A stretch of 64,000 nt of DNA. Source: Escherichia phage FFH2. The notes under the pieces were generated by a model. That model saw only the letters and a program-made list of their open reading frames with translations. It had not been told where the DNA came from and searched no databases. A program made the translations under genes and the position numbers. The stretch's first letter is position 1; the number at the start of each line of letters is the position of its first letter. The stretch lies in sequence record KJ190158. The stretch is one strand, 5' to 3'. Positions 29,038 through 57,675 of this stretch are shown piece after piece.

Positions 29038-29156
29038 AGCACCGAGCCCACACAGGTTCCTCATACTAAAGCATGGCCTGAAGAGGCAAACGTGCATAAT
29101 TCCTGCGCATTTGGACGTATAATCCTGTTCACACTCTCATTTCCAGAGGAGATTTT

Positions 29157-29372: not shown

Positions 29373-29499
29373 CACACAATTAGCTGCCCGGCTAAAGTGC
29401 TGGAAGCACCTATAACACATCTTTCAACTAAATTTCCTACCACCACAATCACTTACCTCCCACACATGACTGTTTGCTTGTTTAGTGAGCAGTCATGCC

Positions 29500-29527
29500 T
29501 TGACATTCTTGCCTATCCTGATAAAAT
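29500..29527 (+). promoter_or_regulatory. sigma70-like promoter firing into the ORF-free region
   Basis: TTGACA-16 nt-TAAAAT, just after a CATGACTG...CAGTCATG hairpin (29465-29497). There is no ORF downstream for about 2.3 kb. Confidence 0.5.
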
Positions 29528-30842
29528 TAAGTTCTTCTCTTTTCTTTTACCGAGTAATTCGGGTTTTCTGTTCTCTTCGGTTTGAAGGGGTATAGAGATA
29601 CACCTGAGTGAACAGGGTGAACAACCGAACATTTGGCTATGGCATTAGCATGGCGAAGCGGACGGGTGACGAAAGAGGGGCCGGAGGACACCAGTCACTG
29701 CCATATGATATATGGGTGATAACCTGAAGAGTCTGAATAAGTGTTTAAGTACCAGTCAGAGGAAAAGGTGAATGGTAGCCGAAGGGGGAGGGGGGTTTCT
29801 TGTATCTTTAATTTGTATATTATGTATACACTTGTAAACCAATCTCATCTGAATTTGTTTACCACACAAAGTGGATAGGGACAAATATTACCTATTAAAC
29901 TTGAATTATTTATAGAAATACCACAACACCACTTAAGTCTTTGATTTTACACACAAATCCTACAGATATTCACCCTCCATATTTAACATACCTGTAACAT
30001 ATTCCATACCCTACCTGACCGATCAATTCACCCAACTACATCCCCATATTTTCCCTGTCTGTACTACCCCTGCCCCGCCGGGAGTCCCGTCATATCTGGC
30101 TTTCCAGCAAATATCACACCCACAAATATCATTGCCTGAAGAGGGTTTCATCCCATAATACATGCCTTACCTGAAGAGCGCTTCATACACCACGTAAATT
30201 TTTTAATTGACCCCCTCCCCGCCGCCGGAGAGGTTGGCTTTTCCCACACAGACCTGAAGAGTCAGCCAGAAATATCTGAACAGGTCCAGCTATGCCACGA
30301 TTTTGTGCTTGTCCTACAGGAGTGCCTCCCTGTCAGGAGCCGGTAGCGACTGGAGTGCTGCCAGGCGGACGAAATGGGAATCATTCTCATTCTTATAACA
30401 ATTCTCAAATATCGAGGCAGTGAGGCAAATTAATAGGTGAGGCCGTTCACACAATGGCACAACATTTGCAACCTATCTTGTGGGAGTGAATGAGAATACC
30501 TATCATTGTGAGAATAGTTATCATTACGGGCAATTTAACATAATACCCATTATGCGCACCACTGGCGATCCATACAGGGATTGATAACATGGGTTACTGT
30601 TTACACACATAACAATTATATTTCTTACTATTTGTGTGGGATATAGTTAGCAGCCGATAGATTAGATATTGACCTGTAGACTTCCAACCGTCCAGACGTC
30701 TAAACGCCCACACAACAAGGGTTATACATACACAACTGAATGTAAACAGGGCCGCAAAAATGCTACCATACAAGCTTGTAAATTTTTCATGCAGCACTTG
30801 ACAAAGAGGAGGAAAACTTGTCTGACACTTTAGACACAATAG

Positions 30843-31168
30843 TGACATAATATGACATAATGGTGACACTGAACATAATTGACATGCCTGACTGTTTACA
30901 TAGCTAACTATTCATACAGAAATGATAAGCCATGCCATTCGTTTGCATGATAATAATTAACTTGTTTACAATAGATGACATAATATAAAAGCAGGGCAAC
31001 TATTAGAAGATCTATAGTTGCCTTGCTTGTTATGTCATGATTAACTAAATACAAGGCAACTATGATCTGATTAATAGTTTGCAGACAAACTATCACGGGG
31101 GTGATGGTTACTGCTTTTATATTATGTCGCGACTCCGTCGCGCCATGCCATTCGTTTGCATAGTTGCC
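30843..31168. repeat. cluster of three short repeat families (TGACATAAT, GGCAACTAT half-sites, 20-mer GCCATGCCATTCGTTTGCAT)
   Basis: TGACATAAT at 30843, 30853 and 30976, plus inverted near-copies at 31029 and 31121. GGCAACTAT/ATAGTTGCC at 30995, 31014, 31055, 31074, 31086 and 31160. The 20-mer at 30929-30948 and 31142-31161. Confidence 0.8.
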
Positions 31169-31778
31169 TTATTGTTACAGATAAAATAATTGTATTGTTA
31201 ATTATTTCTTATCTTTCTCTTAGTCATCTAATGATTCCAGTCAGTATAGTAATGTACAGTAAACATTAGACGACTAAAGATTTCTCTGTTTATTATAACT
31301 TACCGTGACAATTTCAGGCTGTTTACGAAAAATGTTGACACCTGGGCCGATTTATGTTATGCAGTTTACACGAATAATTATTTTATGCAGGTATTGACTA
31401 TTCCGTTATTCTATGGTTGGAATAAATACTTAGCAGACTATAGAATGGTGAGCGTACGTAAATTCTGAGATCTGGCGGCTATAGTTATACTCGATTTTTC
31501 ACGTAGAACACGCTTTTGTTAGTGTGTAAGTGTATGACTTATAAAGATTTTTAGTTGTTGACAAGATATTGAAGATGTGCATCAGGTTAAATTTTGTGCA
31601 ATAGCGGCATTACGTGCAATTTTGAGAGAGAAAACGGGTAAAAATGGCCTTGCTATCACACAATGAAAAATTATGCAATAGTTATTTTACATGTATGTTT
31701 GTACAGTGTGTGGGATTGATGGCTAGTCAATTATTCCACTTGCCAGGCTGGGCCGTTTGTGGTAGGAGAAATACAGAC

Positions 31779-31806
31779 AAAAAGAAAGGGGCCTTTTAAA
31801 GCCCCT
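31779..31806 (-). terminator. rho-independent terminator ending the minus-strand small-gene block
   Basis: Minus strand: GGGGC-tttaaaag-GCCCC followed by TTTCTTTTT. Confidence 0.75.
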
Positions 31807-32714: not shown

Positions 32715-32987
32715 TTACTTATGGCGGCAGAATTCAAGCGTTTTTAATTGATAATCTTCCTCAGCCTGGAGTACTACCGCCTCGATCATTTCGTTGGCAT
32801 TGTTAAAGCCATAACCTTTAGCGAACTCATCCGCGCCACCTTCGTGATCATGTTCTGCGTTCATCGCTTCCACAAAATGGAATTCCAAATTGTTGAGGTA
32901 GGGGCTTGATGTTCCGTCCTCTTTTTCGATGAGATCCCAGATAGCATTAAAACGTGATTCGACTTCTTGATTAATCCAGCTTGACAT
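32715..32987 (-). CDS. hypothetical acidic protein
   Basis: 90-aa ORF with a GAGAGGAAAA SD preceded by a GGGCA...TGCCC hairpin and a TTGACA-17-TAACAT promoter. Confidence 0.6.
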   Translation of the reverse strand: MSSWINQEVESRFNAIWDLIEKEDGTSSPYLNNLEFHFVEAMNAEHDHEGGADEFAKGYGFNNANEMIEAVVLQAEEDYQLKTLEFCRHK

Positions 32988-33095
32988 AATGTTTTCCTCT
33001 CTTCTGGTTGTTGTGTGGGCACTTTTGCCCCTTCAAGATAAATGTTACCCCACCCCCTGGCAGATGTCAACGGTTTTTATAGTTCTTATATGACA

Positions 33096-33138
33096 GGCAG
33101 GCCCGGTGATTGTCTCCCCCCGTCGCCAGGTGCCTGCC
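33096..33138 (-). repeat. GC-rich structured element, copy 3 (see 42421 and 42556)
   Basis: Minus strand: GGCAGGCacctggcgacgGGGGGAGACAATCACCGGGCCTGCC. The outer arms GGCAGGC and GCCTGCC are complementary. The core GGGAGACAAYCACCGGG is shared with the 42.4-kb copies. Confidence 0.7.
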
Positions 33139-33151
33139 GTTGAATAAGTAT

Positions 33152-33184
33152 AACAAAAAACAGGACCATTGCAAGCCCTGTTTT
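33152..33184 (-). terminator. rho-independent terminator
   Basis: Minus strand: AACAGG-gcttgcaatggt-CCTGTT followed by TTTTGTT. Confidence 0.65.
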
Positions 33185-33198
33185 CTAGTCAATAAGGA

Positions 33199-42038: not shown

Positions 42039-42215
42039 TTAGTTAAAATTATTTTTTGGGCGGAATTCTCCAGCCGCCGCCCCTGCCAGGTTAACCATCA
42101 TTTTTTCGTACTCTTCTTTATATTCCAACGCTCCCGCTATAGCCTTTTCAACCAGGGCGATAGCCTCAGCGTCATTAATAGCTACATTTTCCAGGGGGAT
42201 CATATTACCTTTCAT
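42039..42215 (-). CDS. hypothetical protein (58 aa)
   Basis: MKGNMIPLENVAINDAEAIALVEKAIAGALEYKEEYEKMMVNLAGAAAGEFRPKNNFN with a strong SD (GAAGAGGAGG). Below the ORF-track cutoff. It is the first gene of the small-gene island. Confidence 0.55.
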   Translation of the reverse strand: MKGNMIPLENVAINDAEAIALVEKAIAGALEYKEEYEKMMVNLAGAAAGEFRPKNNFN

Positions 42216-42374
42216 TTTTGTACCTCCTCTTCAATTGTTACCTATCCTATAGCATAGGCCCACCAGGTTTACAAGCCTTCATTCTCTCCTACCTGGTCAG
42301 TTAGGTCCTGCCAGGCTGGCCCCACTAGGTTGCAGCGGTTAGTGCATCAGGTTAGAAAAATTTTTTGAAAAGTG

Positions 42375-42403
42375 TTGACAGCGGCCCCGCCAGGTGGCAC
42401 AAT
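42375..42403 (+). promoter_or_regulatory. plus-strand sigma70-like promoter P1 in the ORF-free island
   Basis: GAAAAATTTTTTGAAAA (UP-like), then TTGACA-17 nt-CACAAT. It is oriented opposite to all flanking genes. Confidence 0.5.
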
Positions 42404-42420
42404 ATACCTATCGAAAGGAC

Positions 42421-42493
42421 GGCAGGCACCGGTGACGGGGGAGACAACCACCGGGGATGGGCGCTGCATAAAATGAGAACGGTTATCATTATC
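42421..42493 (+). repeat. GC-rich structured element copy 1 plus Fur-box-like motif
   Basis: GGCAGGCACCGGTGACGGGGGAGACAACCACCGGGG... contains the CCGGTG/CACCGG stem. It is followed by GAGAACGGTTATCATTATC (42475-42493). Confidence 0.7.
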
Positions 42494-42518
42494 ATTTAAA
42501 AATTTATGCAAAAAATCC

Positions 42519-42546
42519 TTGCTTTCTTTGTCCTGTGTGATACTAT
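42519..42546 (+). promoter_or_regulatory. plus-strand sigma70-like promoter P2 (extended -10)
   Basis: TTGCTT-16 nt-TGaTACTAT. Confidence 0.45.
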
Positions 42547-42555
42547 AATAACAAG

Positions 42556-42629
42556 CCGGGGCAACAGGGGCCGGGAGACAATCACCGGGCCTGCCCGTTA
42601 TTCTGCAAACGAGAATGATTATCATTCAA
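42556..42629 (+). repeat. GC-rich structured element copy 2 plus Fur-box-like motif
   Basis: CCGGGGCAACAGGGGCCGGGAGACAATCACCGGGCCTGCCCG followed by GAGAATGATTATCATTCAA (42611-42629). Confidence 0.7.
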
Positions 42630-42742
42630 AATTCTAAATGAGAACTCCTCGCATTTAATAAATTTAATTAGCACGCTAATTACACTCCGTAACAATTTAC
42701 TATAAAATAGTATCCACTAAAATATTCCCATATAGAAATTTT

Positions 42743-43200
42743 AAAAATCCATTTCTGAAAACGAAAAATCGATTTCGTCCCTAAAAATTTCAGGCCTAGA
42801 TCCGGAACGATTTCCAGAAAATCCGATTCAGAAAACGAAAAACAGATCGAGTACTGAGAAATTTATCGAGAAAAATTTTCAGAAAATCCAAGCCCTGAAA
42901 TGAAAAGTAGATCGAGTACCTGGAAAGCTGCACCGCAACTTCAAGATAGTGGTTAGATTGTTACCATAGAAGGTCAAGGGTAAGTGGAGGAAGTTCTAGT
43001 AGAGGGAGGTTAGCATGTGTGGGAAATCTATAATGGTGGCCTGGAATATAGTGCAAACGATAGGATGAGTTATTCAGCTTGTCGCGCCTACTCTGAAAAA
43101 TCCATTTTAGTTTTCGATCCATTTTCTGATTTTCTAAGAATTTTAAAATATCCGGCCCGGTGAAATATCAAAAGGAGGAAATCCATTTTAGAAATCCCCC
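42743..43200. repeat. A/T-rich iteron field: three tandem ~65-73-nt units plus inverted copies of (A/G)GAAAATCC
   Basis: Units start at 42743, 42816 and 42881 (AGAAAATCCnnTTCnGAAAAYGAAAAnnAGATCGAGTAC...). Further AAATCCATTTT copies lie at 43095, 43177 and 43190, with inverted copies at 43115-43135. Confidence 0.75.
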
Positions 43201-43231
43201 TTATACTTGATATGCCAGGAATTTTCAAGTA

Positions 43232-43561
43232 TCAGCTGTCTTTGTTTTTAGGTTTGTACATGCGCAGAGGTATGGTCTTTGTAACATTCCATTTCCTCAA
43301 CCCTTCCCAGCTCCAGTTGTGGGCGTGATACCCGGTTATGCATGCACTGCTGGCGTGATCATAAGCATAAGAGAACGCTATGTGCACCAGGTGGGGCCAG
43401 TCCTTCCACGGCTGTGGACCGTAAGCCTTTCTCCAACACCGACACAAACTAATTGTCTCAAGAATAGGGAGAATAACAATTCCATATACCACCACCAGAA
43501 TGGTCAGTGCAATGATTGTCAGGAACACATACCCTGCAGTTGAAATGATGATCTCTGTCAT
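43232..43561 (-). CDS. membrane protein
   Basis: The N-terminal IIISTAGYVFLTIIALTILVVVYGIVILPIL is hydrophobic. Last gene of the 64-to-43-kb minus-strand block. Confidence 0.55.
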   Translation of the reverse strand: MTEIIISTAGYVFLTIIALTILVVVYGIVILPILETISLCRCWRKAYGPQPWKDWPHLVHIAFSYAYDHASSACITGYHAHNWSWEGLRKWNVTKTIPLRMYKPKNKDS

Positions 43562-43761
43562 TTGTCGTCCCCTTTCTTACGAATATAGATGTGAGAGCCT
43601 GCCTGTATATAAATTTCTCGACCATCCTCTGCAAAGATATGAAATACACGATCACCTTCGTACTCGATACGAGATATCTTCATAATGGTCTTTCCACCTG
43701 GGATACGGATCTCGTCCCCCACAGCGATGTTCCATGCAGATTTAAGCTTAAACATCTGCAC
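43558..43761 (-). CDS. hypothetical protein
   Basis: 67-aa ORF overlapping its neighbours by a few nt, consistent with translational coupling. Confidence 0.5.
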   Translation of the reverse strand: MQMFKLKSAWNIAVGDEIRIPGGKTIMKISRIEYEGDRVFHIFAEDGREIYIQAGSHIYIRKKGDDK

Positions 43762-51540: not shown

Positions 51541-52383
51541 CATCTGTTCAGGTAGGTCGTTAAGCTACCCCGCACCATTACGTGCATAGCCATACAGTTT
51601 CCTGTATGGATCGGACTACCTCACTGCCTTGGTAACAAGGCACCTCCCATTTCGACCGCACTTGCTGGCCTACTCTACTCGCTTCTTCACACCAACCTAT
51701 GTTGGAGCTATGCTTTCGATAGTCTCTGAACGTTACTACCAGGTGTAGTTTTTAGAGATATGTTTCCACTGTCTTCTTTGCTTTATAGCCCTGACGGTCT
51801 CATAAGGATATCCAAGATCCCTAATCTCGCATTGTCGTAGACCACTCTGCAACAGTTCGCAAATCTCTATTACCTCATCTTCTGTCAGCACAGCGTTAGC
51901 ATTATACTCACCAACTGGCCTTACTCTGAGGTCATTATCATAGGCGTGCTTGATATTTCCACCAGGGGTGGTCCATTCTAGGTTCCAGTATGCATTGTTG
52001 TACTTATTCCCATCCTTATGGTTCACCCATGTGAGTCTTTCAGGATCTGGGTTTGATACAAAGCATTCAGCAACCAGGTGGTGGACACCTTTTGTGCACT
52101 GCTTCCCCTCGATTAGCATGGTTACGCAAAGGTAACCTCTACCATTATCAAAACAAAACATTGTTGTATGATCACGTTTCGATAAAGGTATTGTTCCATC
52201 ATCAAACACGGTATACCCGTGATAATCAGCTGTTCTAGCCATTTTAACTACACCCCTTTAGTCTTCGCTGCGGATTAGCATATTGAGCTTTTACCATACT
52301 CAGGTGTAAAAGTCAACTTAGCTTCCCCGTCAATTAAAGAGGTTATTCGACATAGATTACTCTATGAAGCCACAATGTTATTT
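51541..52383 (-). mobile_element. Group I intron in the DNA polymerase gene carrying an HNH ORF
   Basis: Minus strand: exon 1 ends ...UACCAU, which can pair with the intron UGUGG (U.G at the splice site). The intron ends ...ACAGAUG. P7 candidates are GACUA (5' part) and UAGUC (3' part). About 135 nt and 195 nt of GC-rich noncoding flanks surround the HNH ORF. Splicing restores the HDE of pol A motif C. Confidence 0.8.
51736..52242 (-). CDS. HNH homing endonuclease (intron-encoded)
   Basis: WVNHKDGNKYNNAYWNLEWTT is an HNH motif. The C terminus has an HTH-like region (LRQCEIRDLGYPYETVRAIKQRR). Confidence 0.85.
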   Translation of the reverse strand: MARTADYHGYTVFDDGTIPLSKRDHTTMFCFDNGRGYLCVTMLIEGKQCTKGVHHLVAECFVSNPDPERLTWVNHKDGNKYNNAYWNLEWTTPGGNIKHAYDNDLRVRPVGEYNANAVLTEDEVIEICELLQSGLRQCEIRDLGYPYETVRAIKQRRQWKHISKNYTW

Positions 52384-54807
52384 ATGGTAATAAATAATAC
52401 GACGAACACCTTCATCGTACCACCCACGCTTCACCATTTGGTGGTGCATGAGTATCCCAACTAAGTCACACAACGATGCACCACCATTTTGTTGGTATGC
52501 ATTAAGTAAAGAGTGTTTAGATCGGGTCCAGATGGCATGACCATCAAAAGAGTAGATAAACTTCTTACCCGTTGCTTCCCAGAATTTCTCCAGATCCTCT
52601 TTACGGCCCTTAAGACCAGGGTTGGCATCCCAAAGCGCATCGATTACCCTTTGTCCCAACTCTGGAGAGATGTCCAGCATATCTGCAACTTTATCTTTTT
52701 GTGCCCCGTACATAACCCCATACGTGATAGGTTTACCGTCGTTACGGGACACCTCTCTGCCTGCTACTTTTGTATATGCCTCAGCATTGTTTTGGTGTGC
52801 GTCTCCGTTACTTACAACATCATAATACAAGCCGTTGTCGAACTCAAAGGCACCCCAAGCCCCGATAAGCTGCTCTAAGTTGGACCCGTCAATACCGATC
52901 TCAAAGTATCCAGGAGGAACACCCCACAGACTACGCATCTCTTTACCCATAACCACTTTAGGAGATGGTTTAGGCATGTTTGCACAAATACTGTGTTTCT
53001 GTCTGGAAGTGTTTGTTAATCCAGAGCTTTTAGCAGGAAGCTTATGGTCAATCTTCAAACGTGGGTGATTAAGAAGACCAGTGTCAACCTTATCCTCCTT
53101 GATTGGATCAAGTACCGATCTGCGGTTTCGCAATGATAACCATAAGACGATATCTTTAGCCATCTCTCCGTTCAATTTTTCAAGATTCGGACACAGGTGT
53201 CCAAACGTATCTTTCAGTTGCGGAGAAGTAATAAGTGCCCTAGCTTTTCTACGTATTTTCCCGAATACTTCCTTTTTAATCCTTTCGGAGTTAGGAAAGC
53301 TTCGGAACTTGTGCACTGTTGTCTGAAACTTAGCATCAGTTTTGTTCCAGAAGTTGATAATTAGGTCACAATACTCTGACTCTAAAAGCTCGTCCATGTA
53401 TGCATATACTCGTGCATCAACATCTGCATCAGGTAGAGCTTTCTTCTTGCTGTCTTTAGTTACATCCTTAGTTCTCCACATTGTCGGAAGCCAACCAGCA
53501 CTGATCAGGTATCGCTTAATGTCGTCCTGATTGCTGATTTTCATAGGTATCTTGCAGTCAGGCATTCGCTTCTGCTGCAGATCGCTTATTGCCTGATCCA
53601 TCAGCTCTTTAGGCAAAGGTTGTGGTGTGGAGGTGCCCTTAATATAGCCTCTCAAGAAATCAGCCATCTTATCGTGGTCTTTGCAGCCCATCTCTTCACA
53701 CCATTTTATCCCCATTTTACTGACATCTCCTGTGGAGGTAAATGCTCGCTTAGGTGGGGCTTTGAACTCTAAAGCGCTCATGTCTACAGGATAGCCAAGC
53801 TTATCTTTTAACCATTTCCAACCATTATTGGAGATTGTCCCATCTTGGTTAAACGGCTTTTCAGGGAACTTGGGCCGCTGAGACATTGACAGCTCTTTTA
53901 AAGGTAGTTGTGGTTCAACACGATCAGCTATTTCTTTCATCCACGCATCGCAACGGTCACGTAAAGCAATAGCCCCGTCTATGTCGAAATACACACCCTG
54001 ACGGGCCTGCAGCTCCATCAGGAAGTGCTGCAGCATGCCTCGACGTAGTGCGTTCTTCCAGGTGATCTTCTTGAACCCTTTCGGCTTCTCTTTGGCTGGA
54101 TCGTACATAAAGTTCTGCATGTCAGATTTGCCGTAGAATACACCTTTTGATTCCGCTACCAGCTCTTTCCAGAGCAGCTCCTGGATGATAACGTCCTCGA
54201 ATACACGATCCACATACTTCCACAACGGAAGATCGCGCCAGTCATCAATTTGAACTTTCTGGTTACCAAGGGCGTAGCCCCATGCCATAAGGCCGTGAGG
54301 ACCAACAGGCTGCATTTTCTTAGTAACCGGGTTGAATACAGAGTCCGGACAACCTTTTGGTAAAGGGCGATCAGGCCACAAGATTCGGCTCATCGCCAAC
54401 GTATCAAACAGGTTAACCTGGTGGTCGTTGATAGTCCCCATACATTTAGGATCACGGAACATATCAAAATGAATACCGGATAATCTCTCCATCAGCATAA
54501 AGTCATAACTGTAGCAGTTATGGCAGTTCAAAGCTGTTGGTGACCAGTCGGAATTGCCTGTAAGCCAACCCTCCAACTCCGAAAAATCTGCTATGCGAAC
54601 TTCAAAATCCTTATAAAGAGTTTTCTTTGCCAGAATAAAGTTCTTAGCCTTCTCTATATCCTCCTCGGAGTAGTGTGTGCGGTCATTTAGAGGAAGGAAC
54701 AGCATAAAACGGTTCTTATTCAGCTCTTTAAACAGGCCGCAATGATAATAAAGATCTGGGTCTTCCAAAAGCCCTGAGGCCTCCAGATCGAAGCACCAAT
54801 TACTCAT
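52384..54807 (-). CDS. DNA polymerase (family A, T7 gp5-like), exon 1
   Basis: N-terminal 3'-5' exonuclease motif WCFDLEASGL (DxE). Polymerase motifs follow (DGSNLEQL region, KPITYGVMYG motif B-like). As a plain ORF it stops one codon after ...IIYYH, inside motif C. Confidence 0.9.
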
Positions 54808-55538
54808 ACTGTCTCCTCCTGTGTCTTCTCAGCATTCTTTCTTGCAGCTATTGCATCGTCCCTGTTCTTGAAATACCCAAGGCATTTCCTTTTACCATCT
54901 ACATGAATTCTGGCTACCCATCTTTCATGGGTTTTATCCCAATTCACCCCTGAGCAACCGCTGGTGTTATTATACTGCACGGCTCTTCCACTCTTGTGCG
55001 AAAAACCATTATCTTCGAAGAACTTTCTTGCCCACTCTGCCTCTTCAAAAGTTCTGTACTGGCCTAGCCAGACCCTTTCACCTACAGAGTCTGTGCCTTG
55101 AGCTACCCATGCCCCTCTTTCTTCAGAATAGTGCACCCCGACCCTGCCAGATTTGTTGTTGCTACGAGGTATCTTGCAACTTTTCTTTTTGTTATCTGTA
55201 GGTTCGAGTAGTTGCAAATTATGAATACTGTTGTCAGCCACACCACCTGTTTCCCTTATCTCCTTGATGTGGTCAACCTCATACCCTTCCGGTACAGGAC
55301 CGTTAAACATTTCCCAGATTATAACGTGGGCACCTTTAGTGCAATGCTTTCCTAGACTAACCACAGGCCTGCCATCAGCATCTTGCCCCTTGTCAGCTCT
55401 GGAGCCTGCTGAAGTTTTAACATATCCTACACCGCTGCCTGCCAGAATGTCTATCTTCCAAAAAAGATTTTGACCGTCATACTCCAATATTTCTGACCAC
55501 AAGTGATTAGCTACACAGTGATCTCTGAACTCGTTCAT
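54804..55538 (-). CDS. free-standing HNH endonuclease with two AP2 DNA-binding domains
   Basis: EVDHIKEI...NSIHNLQLLEPTDNKKKS is an HNH motif. Two AP2-like repeats follow (SGRVGVHYSEERGAWVAQ...LGQYRTFEEAEWARK and SGCSGVNWDKTHERWVARI...LGYFKNRDDAIAARK). Confidence 0.8.
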   Translation of the reverse strand: MNEFRDHCVANHLWSEILEYDGQNLFWKIDILAGSGVGYVKTSAGSRADKGQDADGRPVVSLGKHCTKGAHVIIWEMFNGPVPEGYEVDHIKEIRETGGVADNSIHNLQLLEPTDNKKKSCKIPRSNNKSGRVGVHYSEERGAWVAQGTDSVGERVWLGQYRTFEEAEWARKFFEDNGFSHKSGRAVQYNNTSGCSGVNWDKTHERWVARIHVDGKRKCLGYFKNRDDAIAARKNAEKTQEETV

Positions 55539-55596: not shown

Positions 55597-57675
55597 TTAA
55601 AAAGGTGTTTCATCATCCTCAAAACCAGGGACCGGATCAGAGGATGGATCATCGTATTGGAGGTCTTCCTGCGTGTCAATAGGCTTGACAGTGGGTGTTA
55701 CAACCTTATCAGCCACAACCTTGCCCATAGGTGTTTCTACAACTGCATGCTCTTGATCCTCAAACATAGCCTGAGGTCTCCAAACAACCTCCCCACCTTC
55801 TCCGTCTGTAAACATTTGCATTTCTTTGTCCCAGTACCAATTACTGGCATCATGGAACTTACCTGTGTGCGGGTCCATAACTAAAGTGTCAGCAATACCT
55901 AAAGTTTTTGCTGGACGGTTCTTAAGACCTACCAGACGGACACGTCCACGAGAACGATCCACCATTTCTTCGGCCTCGACACCTATGACTACCCAACTCA
56001 ACTGTTCAAGCCCAGCCGATCCTCGCAAATTCTCTTTTCGCACAGGATACCAGAAAGGTAACGGGTTACCATCTTTGTCCTTAGGAGGCACAATCTCTGT
56101 ACGTTTGAGGTGAGCGATCACCAAGATAAACACGTTAAACTGCTTACAAAACGCAGCCAGTTGGGTCATAGCCATGTCCAGTTCTTTTCGCTCATCCTTA
56201 ACATTAAGCCCTGAAATTACCATGGACAGGTGATCCAGCACAATATAACGACAATAGTACAGGCAAACCATTTGCTTAAGCTTGGTAATCAACTCGTCCA
56301 CCGGAATAGACCCGAAATGTTTGAACACTTTGATTTTTCCAGCTTTTGCCCATGATTGGTGAATCTCTGCGTGTTCTTGATCAGTTAAAAACTGGCTAGG
56401 ATCTTCAACAAACTCTTTAACATCAAACCCTAACTGGTTTGCATACAAGGAGTTAATTGCTTCCTCTGGATCCTCCTCAAGATGGATCATGCATAGACGA
56501 TCATCCTCTTCATAGTCATCGGCCTTCGGGCATGTCGGGTCCATTAAGTATCTTGCAATACAGTGTTCCAGTTTTTTAGCCACGGTTGTTTTACCGCCGC
56601 CTGATGGACCTGTAAGCATTACGAGTGTCCCTTTGTGCAAGCCTTTTAGCATTTTTTGCAGTTTTGGGAACTCTGCACTGATATCTACCCCGTTGGAAGT
56701 CTTTTTCCGCAAAGACTCGATAGAGAAGTCTTCTAAATCCGACACAGCATCAGGCACATATTTAACAGGGTGCCGGAACATGTTGACAATATCTTCCAGC
56801 TTTTTAGCCTTCAGCATGTCTCGGATATCTTTTACACCGTCAGGGTCATTTACTTCACCAGGGTATTCTACGTGGTAAACGTTATCAGCCATCAAAAATG
56901 CTGCGATATTGTGCGTGGCCTCAACACCTTTAATGACGTGTTTTTGCTTCTCTACCTCGTTAGCTGCATCGTTATCCATTGCCAGCACAACTGTTCCATA
57001 GCTACGGATAAACTTCTCATTGTTTGCAAAAGTATCTACTGCGTTTGCACATCCACAGTTAATTCCAACAAAAGGCAGGCAGGGTTTTCCTGCCAGATCA
57101 CCACCGTTGATAACTGCGTCGATCCCGTCCTGGACCTCTTTAGCCCACTGCTTCACCTTTGCCGGGGCTTTAGCGTTGGTGAGAATCCCTTTTACTTGTA
57201 TCTGATATGCAGCCTGCCATGCTGCAATAACATCACCTTCTCCCTCACAAACGTTAATCTGCTTACGGTTGTTGGAAGATGCACACAGCTTTTGACCAAA
57301 CATCTGGGAGTTGGCCTTTACGATGCCAACAACGGAGAAATGGCCCCTTTGCTCTTTAGGAATAGTCCAGTCACGCTTTTTGAAACCAGACAGATTTCCG
57401 TAGCGGTCGTAATATGGGAAATATGTTGCAGTGACTGTCACACCGTCTTCTTGGGACAATGCTGATCGCACACCAAAATATTGTGCAGCCATCAGACCGA
57501 TATTTTGTTGTGGGACAGGGACAATTTTAGTATTTTCTAAAACAGTCTCTACAGTTTCAACTTCTTTTTCATCACGATAGTCTCGTTTCACACTTCCCCC
57601 ACTTTTATACTTAGTTGCTTTCGGGTTTGGCTCACCGAAACGGTTGTATGCAGATGCCATAAATTTACTTCCCAT
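55597..57675 (-). CDS. bifunctional primase-helicase (T7 gp4-like) without an N-terminal zinc ribbon
   Basis: TOPRIM (NVCEGEGDVIAA ... VLAMDNDAAN), Walker A (LTGPSGGGKTT) and Walker B (YIVLDHLS). Acidic C-terminal tail ...GFEDDETPF. There is no Cys in the first ~128 residues. Confidence 0.9.
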   Translation of the reverse strand: MGSKFMASAYNRFGEPNPKATKYKSGGSVKRDYRDEKEVETVETVLENTKIVPVPQQNIGLMAAQYFGVRSALSQEDGVTVTATYFPYYDRYGNLSGFKKRDWTIPKEQRGHFSVVGIVKANSQMFGQKLCASSNNRKQINVCEGEGDVIAAWQAAYQIQVKGILTNAKAPAKVKQWAKEVQDGIDAVINGGDLAGKPCLPFVGINCGCANAVDTFANNEKFIRSYGTVVLAMDNDAANEVEKQKHVIKGVEATHNIAAFLMADNVYHVEYPGEVNDPDGVKDIRDMLKAKKLEDIVNMFRHPVKYVPDAVSDLEDFSIESLRKKTSNGVDISAEFPKLQKMLKGLHKGTLVMLTGPSGGGKTTVAKKLEHCIARYLMDPTCPKADDYEEDDRLCMIHLEEDPEEAINSLYANQLGFDVKEFVEDPSQFLTDQEHAEIHQSWAKAGKIKVFKHFGSIPVDELITKLKQMVCLYYCRYIVLDHLSMVISGLNVKDERKELDMAMTQLAAFCKQFNVFILVIAHLKRTEIVPPKDKDGNPLPFWYPVRKENLRGSAGLEQLSWVVIGVEAEEMVDRSRGRVRLVGLKNRPAKTLGIADTLVMDPHTGKFHDASNWYWDKEMQMFTDGEGGEVVWRPQAMFEDQEHAVVETPMGKVVADKVVTPTVKPIDTQEDLQYDDPSSDPVPGFEDDETPF

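Follow-up and report, generated by a model that had tools for sequence, protein, structure and literature searches.

A conserved non-coding island of promoters, Fur-type operators and direct repeats in rV5-like phages as a candidate replication origin or control region

The primary replication origin of phage T7 consists of the promoters phi1.1A and phi1.1B followed by an A/T-rich segment, and the T4 origins ori(uvsY) and ori(34) combine a promoter with a downstream unwinding element and an R-loop primer. Iteron origins such as lambda ori and plasmid oriV carry initiator-binding direct repeats beside an A/T-rich region and are activated by transcription. A locus with features of these systems was analyzed in Escherichia phage FFH2 (sequence record KJ190158), where an island of 1016 bp (42216-43231) interrupts an array of minus-strand genes. 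The DNA analyzed, referred to as the window, comprises 64 kb (64,000 nucleotides) of a genome of about 137 kb. The island is a conserved, non-coding, cis-acting region built of modules: rightward promoters, a recurrent G-rich hairpin element, boxes of the type bound by the host regulator Fur, and an A/T-rich field of direct repeats. Of the roles considered, the most likely is that of a transcription-activated replication origin or a control region gated by Fur, a reading that is put forward tentatively, at a little under even chances. An earlier description made without database searches (the sequence-only reading) had offered non-coding RNAs (ncRNAs), a T7-like origin or a temporal switch; all three are compatible with a conserved cis-acting island with promoters, and none was proved computationally.

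As in the T7 and T4 origins, the tandem promoters of the island point into an A/T-rich, gene-free segment, with no gene to express and no conserved plus-strand open reading frame (ORF) downstream. As in T7, the neighboring genes encode a T7-type replisome with a family-A polymerase and a DnaB/gp4-like helicase. RNA-DNA hybrids, as at the T4 R-loop origins, would be favored by the G-richness of the leaders. Unlike those of T7 and T4, the promoters are of the host sigma-70 type, and neither a phage RNA polymerase nor an activator of the MotA type is known here. The island further differs in carrying a conserved element, Fur-type operators after the promoters and long direct repeats, and it is known here from sequence alone.

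BLAST placed 42216-43231 as Vequintavirus (rV5-like) sequence, 97-98% identical to EdH4, ECML-10, PDX and others, with 247 matching phage records in all. As the sequence-only reading had held, about 1 kb is free of credible genes and only short ORFs overlap it. An ordinary protein gene was considered for the 92-amino-acid (92-aa) minus-strand ORF at 42347-42625, which is open in most Vequintaviruses and annotated as a coding sequence (CDS) in the Murica, FV3 and ev156 records. Among eight Vequintaviruses, its substitutions fell 8:9:12 over codon positions 1:2:3, as against 4:8:19, 19:13:42 and 3:3:26 in three flanking genes with a strong third-position bias. Several relatives carry a frameshift or an altered C-terminus, and the ORF has no counterpart in genera that keep the DNA elements. 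It therefore has neither a preserved frame nor a third-position excess and is no gene, as had been suspected; the probability of a protein gene here is next to nil. The island is thus non-coding yet under purifying selection, and several GenBank CDS annotations over it are spurious.

An alignment of the eight Vequintaviruses (87-98% identical) was scored per 25-nt bin. Positions 42366-42915 showed 80-100% invariant columns, equaling or exceeding the flanking protein genes. The next stretch, 42916-43090, is poorly conserved and includes a variable, non-repetitive spacer at 42930-43090 (24-60% invariant in each case), after which 43091-43190 is conserved again. The least conserved part among Vequintaviruses is the island's left edge together with the adjoining 58-aa gene at 42039-42215 (window 42039-42315); positions 42116-42290 have no invariant alignment column, and the gene is absent or replaced in several relatives.

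Outside Vequintavirus, BLAST aligned only query positions of about 295-456 (window 42510-42670, covering the second promoter, element B and the first boxes), at 71-88% identity. The phages aligned belong to Seunavirus, Certrevirus, Mydovirus, Henunavirus and Phapecoctavirus, the last in a separate subfamily, Stephanstirmvirinae. At least six genera, from two phage subfamilies, share the layout. In every genus examined, an island of about 0.8-1.3 kb lies between minus-strand genes with its parts in the same order, and any coding content is limited to a small plus-strand ORF or to annotated CDSs of doubtful standing.

In the shared order, a small plus-strand ORF with its own promoter often comes first, followed by promoter P1, an RNA of about 90 nt (RNA1) and one or two GTAAAGA repeats. 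Promoter P2, an element with the core GAGACAAWCACC and one to five palindromic boxes form the middle. Toward the end come direct repeats, of which several genera have three per island; their core is CGATCGAGAAC or GATCGAGACC and their terminus GATCGAGWAC. An AAATATC-rich block closes the series. In Vequintavirus, the P2-type element is present twice, and its second copy, element A, stands where other genera have RNA1.

P1 (TTGACA-17-CACAAT with an upstream TG; plus strand, 42375-42403) was recovered by the promoter scan, with agreement at 10 of 12 positions, exactly where the sequence-only reading had placed it. Its columns are 80-96% invariant among the eight Vequintaviruses. Upstream lies an UP-element-like A/T tract (GAAAAATTTTTTGAAAA; plus strand, 42355-42371), read from the sequence and from repeats D3/D7, and P1 with this A-tract fits the early-promoter consensus published for Certrevirus, AAAA-N3/4-TGTTGAC-N17/19-TATAAT. 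P2 (TTGCTT-16-TGaTACTAT with an extended -10; plus strand, 42519-42546) fell below the scan threshold because its -35 agrees at only three of six positions. Nevertheless, the hexamers proposed for it are present, and across genera both they and the distance between them are preserved while the spacer itself varies freely, which is the pattern of a working promoter. One or more candidate third rightward promoters, P3 (plus strand, 42679-42723; 9 of 12 positions in the scan), are aimed at the repeat field, and clearer equivalents occur in PVP-SE1, EC152 and Ro1 (TTGACA/TTGACT-17-GAAAAT/GATACT). P1, P2 and perhaps the weaker P3 point rightward, opposite to every neighboring gene, and these promoters would fire early in infection. 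A search of the supplement of the rV5 paper for promoter sequences gave no match.

Opposing promoters might also serve a transcriptional boundary or switch. Together with bound proteins as roadblocks (Fur at the boxes and a phage protein at the repeats) they would stop read-through from the replication module and set apart the small-gene cluster, which would have its own leftward promoter at the left edge of the island. The junction of the two gene blocks falls exactly at the island, convergent promoters are present, and the intrinsic-terminator scan found no terminator-like site, including in the upstream minus-strand operon. POP15 has a clear leftward early promoter directly at the equivalent left edge. 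The leftward candidate of the window (TTGTAA-17-TATAGG; minus strand, 42246-42274, for gene 42039-42215), on the other hand, is a low-confidence sequence reading, weak, absent from the scan list and located in a stretch unconserved among Vequintaviruses. A boundary would not need 1 kb, a conserved core, phased boxes or iterons, and copy C of the hairpin element lies inside a co-directional gene array, where insulation is impossible. A boundary function is considered distinctly unlikely.

The segment into which the promoters point holds both A/T maxima of the 64 kb, for stretches of 300 bp (42607-42906) and of 100 bp (42655-42754, 22% GC); the latter is a candidate DNA-unwinding segment. Three imperfect 62-nt direct repeats (D1; plus strand, 42726-42926; 61-73% identical) are spaced by 74 and 65 nt. 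The sequence GATCGAGTAC, the terminus of the second and third copies, occurs within the 64 kb in the island only, and the repeat core CGATCGAGAAC/GATCGAGACC is common to Seunavirus, Mydovirus and Certrevirus. The repeats are thus site-unique and, with their cross-genus core, are candidate initiator sites. A right-hand conserved block (43091-43233, plus strand) holds two copies of AAATCCATTTTAG, two of AAATATC and a repeat pair 81 bp apart (D5, D6); in Ro1, Kashira, POP15 and phiTE, too, AAATATC clusters at this end. Of the 460-bp A/T-rich iteron field first described, the A/T minimum and the repeats at 42726-42926 stand, while 42916-43090 is neither repetitive nor conserved, so that the field is narrower and a second short-repeat block follows at 43091-43233.

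Like iterons, these repeats are unique to their site, have a conserved core and lie near an A/T minimum downstream of promoters. They differ from iteron origins in their units, which are 62-74 bp and imperfect as against 17-22 bp, and in that neither an initiator gene nor true DnaA boxes were found with them in the island of the window. In the relatives, five of seven TTWTNCACA matches (exact TTATACACA) are the -10/start region of P2; the apparent DnaA boxes were therefore rejected as origin evidence.

The GATC in the repeats is reminiscent of the pac site of phage P1, and a DNA packaging (pac) or other DNA-processing site was weighed. The GATC-containing repeats are unique to the island, relatives have been reported as circularly permuted, headful-packaging phages, and several GenBank records begin inside the island. 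These record starts differ in position and so look arbitrary. Moreover, the island is far from the terminase and structural modules, and its promoters and Fur-type boxes would be unexplained. A pac function appears very improbable.

The box that follows each element had been described as GAGAAY-N3-TATCATT. The box itself was confirmed; what had been missed is its match to the host Fur operator, often in arrays with a 29-bp period. Box A1 (AATGAGAACGGTTATCATT) lies at 42472-42490 and box B1 (AACGAGAATGATTATCATT) at 42608-42626, 20-21 nt after CACC as in all genera, and a degenerate box B2 (AATGAGAACTCCTCGCATT) follows 29 bp after B1 at 42637-42655. A position matrix built from boxes of other genera only, which leaves out those of the window, gave these three scores of 25.9, 25.7 and 16.6 bits, respectively. 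For 42 distinct boxes taken from the relatives' islands, the consensus, AATGAGAATsATTCTCATT, is a 19-bp 9-1-9 palindrome with the 7-1-7 core TGAnAATnATTnTCA that characterizes Fur operators (TGATAATnATTATCA), and some copies are canonical, such as AATGATAATGATTATCATT. It is identical to the Xanthomonas Fur box AATGAgAATcATTctCATT (Blanvillain et al. 2007), a type reported to be 84% identical to the Shewanella and B. subtilis boxes.

A matrix built solely from these 42 boxes was applied to 27 kb of E. coli K-12 around the enterobactin (ent/fep) genes. The best six matches (10.7-18.5 bits) were all intergenic, lying at fepB-entC, fepD-entS and fepA-fes (together 2.7% of the scanned DNA), and the next match scored 6.6 bits. 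The matches coincide with the four DNase-footprinted Fur sites of this locus, and the 9548 bp separating the matrix matches at fepA-fes and fepD-entS equal the published value (Chen et al. 2007). In the window, scored with the matrix that leaves out its own boxes, the top box reached 26 bits as against a mean shuffle maximum of 10, and high scores were confined to two non-coding loci, at 42472, 42608 and 42637 and at 30373, 30489 and 30507. The second cluster (30373-30525; 26.1, 19.3 and 16.7 bits) lies in a 2.4-kb ORF-poor divergence region. Phage boxes reach 17-34 bits, above the native E. coli operators at 16-18 bits.

In their palindrome, their consensus and the recovery of E. coli sites by their matrix, the phage boxes resemble the Fur operators of E. 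coli (fepA-fes, fepB-entC, iucA) and Xanthomonas. At the level of sequence they match the Fur operator motif, and Fur may well bind them in vivo. Unlike classical Fur operators, they occur in a virulent phage, downstream of promoters, with G in place of T, and in arrays of one to five. Array boxes start 21, 50, 79 and 108 nt after CACC, exactly 29 bp apart, in every genus. Relative to P1 and P2 they lie at about +60 to +100, and in relatives with longer arrays as far as about +180, while in PVP-SE1-like phages they lie at about -45 to -70 from P3. No convincing minus-strand promoter was found over the boxes.

The ArgR, KdgR and Zur boxes agree with the phage boxes in the outer AATGA/TCATT arms and disagree in length and inner positions, and so were dropped in favor of Fur. 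A tblastn search of the window with an approximate E. coli Fur query, aimed at a phage-encoded homologue, returned nothing below E = 0.36. Literature searches found no report of Fur boxes or arrays in virulent phages. The palindrome was seen in at least 120 unrelated viral contigs (IMG/VR loci L038-L156), often just upstream of TTGACA promoters, for example in L130 (1100-1450) and L116 (560-1260). In L130, Fur-type boxes stand beside three TTATCCACA DnaA boxes. Fur-type operators may therefore be common in phage regulatory DNA.

Between promoter and box stands the G-rich hairpin element. The sequence-only reading had recognized that each promoter is followed by the same two-part module, which corresponds to direct repeats D8 (GGGAGACAAYCACCGGG, 94% identical) and D4 (the box, 73% identical). 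It had missed that promoter and element recur at 33.1 kb as copy C. Element A (plus strand, 42410-42468) has its core GAGACAACCACCG at 42441-42453 and columns that are 92-96% invariant among the eight Vequintaviruses. Element B (plus strand, 42550-42603), the hairpin shared across genera, has its core GAGACAATCACCG at 42575-42587. Copy C (minus strand, 33082-33174), outside the island, consists of a TTGCAA-16-TATACT promoter and then the element with its core at 33104-33116, upstream of a second promoter and the gene 32715-32987. The motif GAGACAAHCACCG occurs three times in the window as against 0.13 expected, the third occurrence (copy C) being on the minus strand.

The element is about 55 nt long with a nearly invariant core (GGAGACAAYCACCGG), and it begins within a few bases of the predicted transcript start. 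In all three window copies and in all homologues it lies 5-10 nt downstream of a same-strand -10 hexamer. The minus-strand copy C also stands behind a strong promoter; the orientation of the element therefore tracks that of its promoter, which argues for a transcription-linked function. Copy C is kept as a separate locus in Phapecoctavirus, Seunavirus and Certrevirus, and boxes follow it in CR3 and GEC_vB_MG. The element together with the first box gave one match in 185,579 species genomes, in a 4-kb contig of a metagenome-assembled genome. A shortened element-and-box pattern matched 22 metagenome contigs (19 distinct sequences), most with the module and several being phage contigs of 130-150 kb; a few resemble chance matches. 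The combination is essentially phage-specific.

As RNA, the element may plausibly fold into an outer and an inner helix with a conserved loop. Predicted minimum free energies (MFEs) are -20.1 kcal/mol for A, -21.6 for B and -23.8 for C, with z-scores against dinucleotide shuffles of -1.9, -1.15 and -3.2. The outer helix (AAUAAC..GGG / CCCGUUAUU in element B) pairs in 82% of cells compared with 23-63% in slid controls. In a hand alignment it shows exchanges of AU for GC and of GC for AU, with 13 G-U pairs and 24 mismatches in the sense strand and 6 and 31 in the antisense strand. The sense strand folds more stably in 18 of 29 element sequences, and the antisense of copy C folds better than its sense. 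RNAalifold gave no consensus structure on the MAFFT element alignments because the 5' halves of the element fail to align. The "GC-rich structured element" of the sequence-only reading thus holds as a recurrent element, its RNA structure being only moderately supported.

A conserved hairpin directly after early promoters, at several loci, is also found in HK022 put and lambda nut/boxB. Copies A and B, unlike put and nut, have no downstream genes or terminators and no boxA/boxB-type sequence, and the loop of the element measures 9-19 nt where nut boxB has a GNRA-like pentaloop. The likeness to put and nut is one of position only. Copy C, in joining a terminator-like hairpin and a promoter, resembles the T4-type PeSL cassettes, in which the stem-loop precedes the promoter, unlike here. 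In copy C (minus strand, 33140-33190; locus L172, 404-423), the -35 TTGCAA lies inside the loop of the hairpin AACAGGGC / GTCCTGTT, the T-run of which is the promoter spacer; copy C is thus an overlapping terminator-promoter. This same structure is annotated in the phAPEC8 record as a terminator.

The repetition of the promoter-element unit, also away from the repeat field at copy C, would suit early ncRNA genes combined with a Fur decoy, neither of them taking part in replication. Two short, stable RNAs of about 55-60 nt would then be made from P1 and P2; their loop GGAGACAAYCACC might act on host or phage RNA or protein, and their outer hairpin with UAUUCU might form a weak terminator. The box array would titrate or sense Fur, and the repeats would bind a phage regulator. 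All three copies and the homologues have their own promoter in matching orientation, the start of the element is close to the predicted start, and UAUUCU follows the outer helix in most genera. The scores of the phage boxes, above those of native E. coli operators, would suit a decoy. Moreover, the related phage phiTE expresses a published functional ncRNA, pseudo-ToxI, from another locus; the pseudo-ToxI locus was checked as a counterpart of this island and lies elsewhere in phiTE. On the other side, the weak UAUUCU is the only candidate for a defined 3' end, the statistics of structure are weak, Rfam has no matching family, no complementary target for the loop was found in the window, and the unique A/T-rich repeat field, always downstream, would be unexplained. 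This combination of ncRNA genes and decoy is judged unlikely. It and the origin or control-region reading are not mutually exclusive.

Searches against Rfam, which the sequence-only reading had suggested along with alignment of relatives, matched no family. At the gathering score there was no match in the whole window, at E<=10 nothing credible in the island, and at E<=1 nothing in two relatives, anhysbys and PVP-SE1; a search of the window for transfer RNA and transfer-messenger RNA was also negative. The alignment revealed conservation, with covariation in the element not above shuffles. The promoter-proximal element is accordingly a recurrent conserved motif without an Rfam family.

The presence of a different RNA at the first position in other genera also fits ncRNA genes. 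RNA1 (CGCC-aCCCCa-CGGCG-aaaa-GGCGGGG, about 90 nt, pseudoknot-like) shows some covariation: CCCC:GGGG in the pseudoknot pairing becomes CCAA:UUGG, a variable hairpin persists, and its covariation score of 0.089, as against 0.042 for shuffles, was reached by 0 of 500 shuffles. Copies were found in locus L003 (2330-2420), L001 (2385-2470) and L007 (about 620-690 and 1310-1400), and one copy in Raoultella phage Ro1 is the 5' leader of a plus-strand gene. RNA1 has no Rfam match. Its best match in the window, by a covariance model with filters off, had E = 0.21, and RNA1 is therefore absent there.

For the origin or control-region reading, the following sequence of events is envisaged. Host RNA polymerase starting at P1 and P2, and possibly P3, would open or prime the A/T-rich repeat field, each transcript comprising the hairpin element of about 55 nt and then one or two near-consensus Fur operators. 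A phage protein bound to the repeats would recruit the gp4-like helicase-primase and the family-A polymerase, which are encoded a few kb away. Iron-loaded Fur (Fe-Fur) on the phased boxes might work as a gate or roadblock and so set the amount of transcription reaching the repeat field, and the boxes might soak up Fur as the phage genome amplifies. Replication would accordingly start at the island, with transcription into the repeat field activating or priming it. The adjacent replication module encodes the family-A DNA polymerase (52378-54807), the DnaB/gp4-like helicase (55597-57675), a PIF1 helicase and a DNA methylase.

Several observations weigh against this assignment. Transcription, Fur binding and replication initiation at the island are all inferred, and no initiator protein was identified. 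To our knowledge, no replication origin that uses Fur has been described. The boxes lie downstream of P1 and P2, where they do not overlap the -35 and -10 as in classical Fur repression. Where T stands in the E. coli consensus they favor G (67%), and it is possible that a phage protein with a specificity like that of Fur binds them instead. MFE z-scores across the element sequences range from +0.2 to -3.7, a weak support for structure, and column-wise covariation of the outer helix in the MAFFT alignment was not above that of shuffles (67/500). The promoter-element(-box) module is also present at copy C, a locus unlike an origin, and a second Fur-box cluster and a second A/T minimum lie at 30-31 kb; the island is therefore not unique in its module, its boxes or its A/T minimum. 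Finally, the only turn of the cumulative GC skew comes at about 30 kb, together with the change in gene orientation, and neither GC nor AT skew has an inflection at the island. Skew is dominated by transcription, so the missing inflection is weak evidence. In the rV5 genome paper, the origin was likewise not located by skew analysis because skew changes follow gene orientation only. Literature searches found no rV5-group transcriptome, no mapped origin, no function for the island and no description of the element.

The region at 29400-31800 is a larger ORF-poor region, so that the long spacer claimed by the sequence-only reading holds for the length of the island and not for its uniqueness. 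It lies at the divergence of plus- and minus-strand genes and at the turn of the GC skew, and contains three Fur-type boxes. The second most A/T-rich 100 bp of the window are at 31169-31268. Of the nine copies of CCTGAAGAG in the window, four fall in this region and a fifth lies a little upstream, at 29077 (0.67 expected by chance). This region, too, could have a regulatory or origin-like role.

New here are a variant of a phage origin or control region and the use of host Fur operators by a virulent phage, each of a kind otherwise known. The Fur-box array is the unexpected part, and predicts a strictly lytic phage that reads or manipulates the host iron regulon. It is conceivable, though somewhat unlikely, that a virulent lineage (the rV5-like and phi92/phAPEC8-like subfamilies) has fused Fur operators phased at 29 bp to a new RNA element and thereby gates its replication or early transcription by iron status, or uses the boxes as a Fur sponge. 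In the sponge version, amplifying phage DNA would derepress host iron uptake and the Fur regulon to the benefit of the phage. Phages of the rV5 type are widely used in biocontrol and phage therapy, and the island offers a concrete origin candidate with exact coordinates in two subfamilies. A link to Fur, if true, would bear on phage efficacy at iron-limited infection sites.

In other genera, small plus-strand ORFs occupy the island's left end, as in locus L003 (2097-2279), L001 (2075-2341) and L036 (about 1332-1613). They are of two types, DUF7170 (PVP-SE1 gp201) and an 'LGWQGGTVHQV' protein without a Pfam match, and they have no homologues in the window. Between the genes for DNA polymerase A and the DnaB-like helicase, an HNH endonuclease ORF (54804-55538, minus strand; HNH_3 and a weak AP2 match) overlaps the polymerase ORF by 4 nt and is probably a homing endonuclease.

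The island is matched by 17 GenBank records labeled 'Campylobacter phage', most with C. jejuni as host, such as MG065646, MG065647 and MG065677. Identity to the E. coli rV5-like phage studied here is 95-97% for those listed, and the host label looks doubtful, pointing to contamination or mislabeling. In phage VB-EcoM-WM (PQ014731.1; locus L168, 1850-2047), a 66-aa ORF homologous to window positions 43558-43761 is annotated as '30S ribosomal protein S2', which is almost certainly an annotation error.

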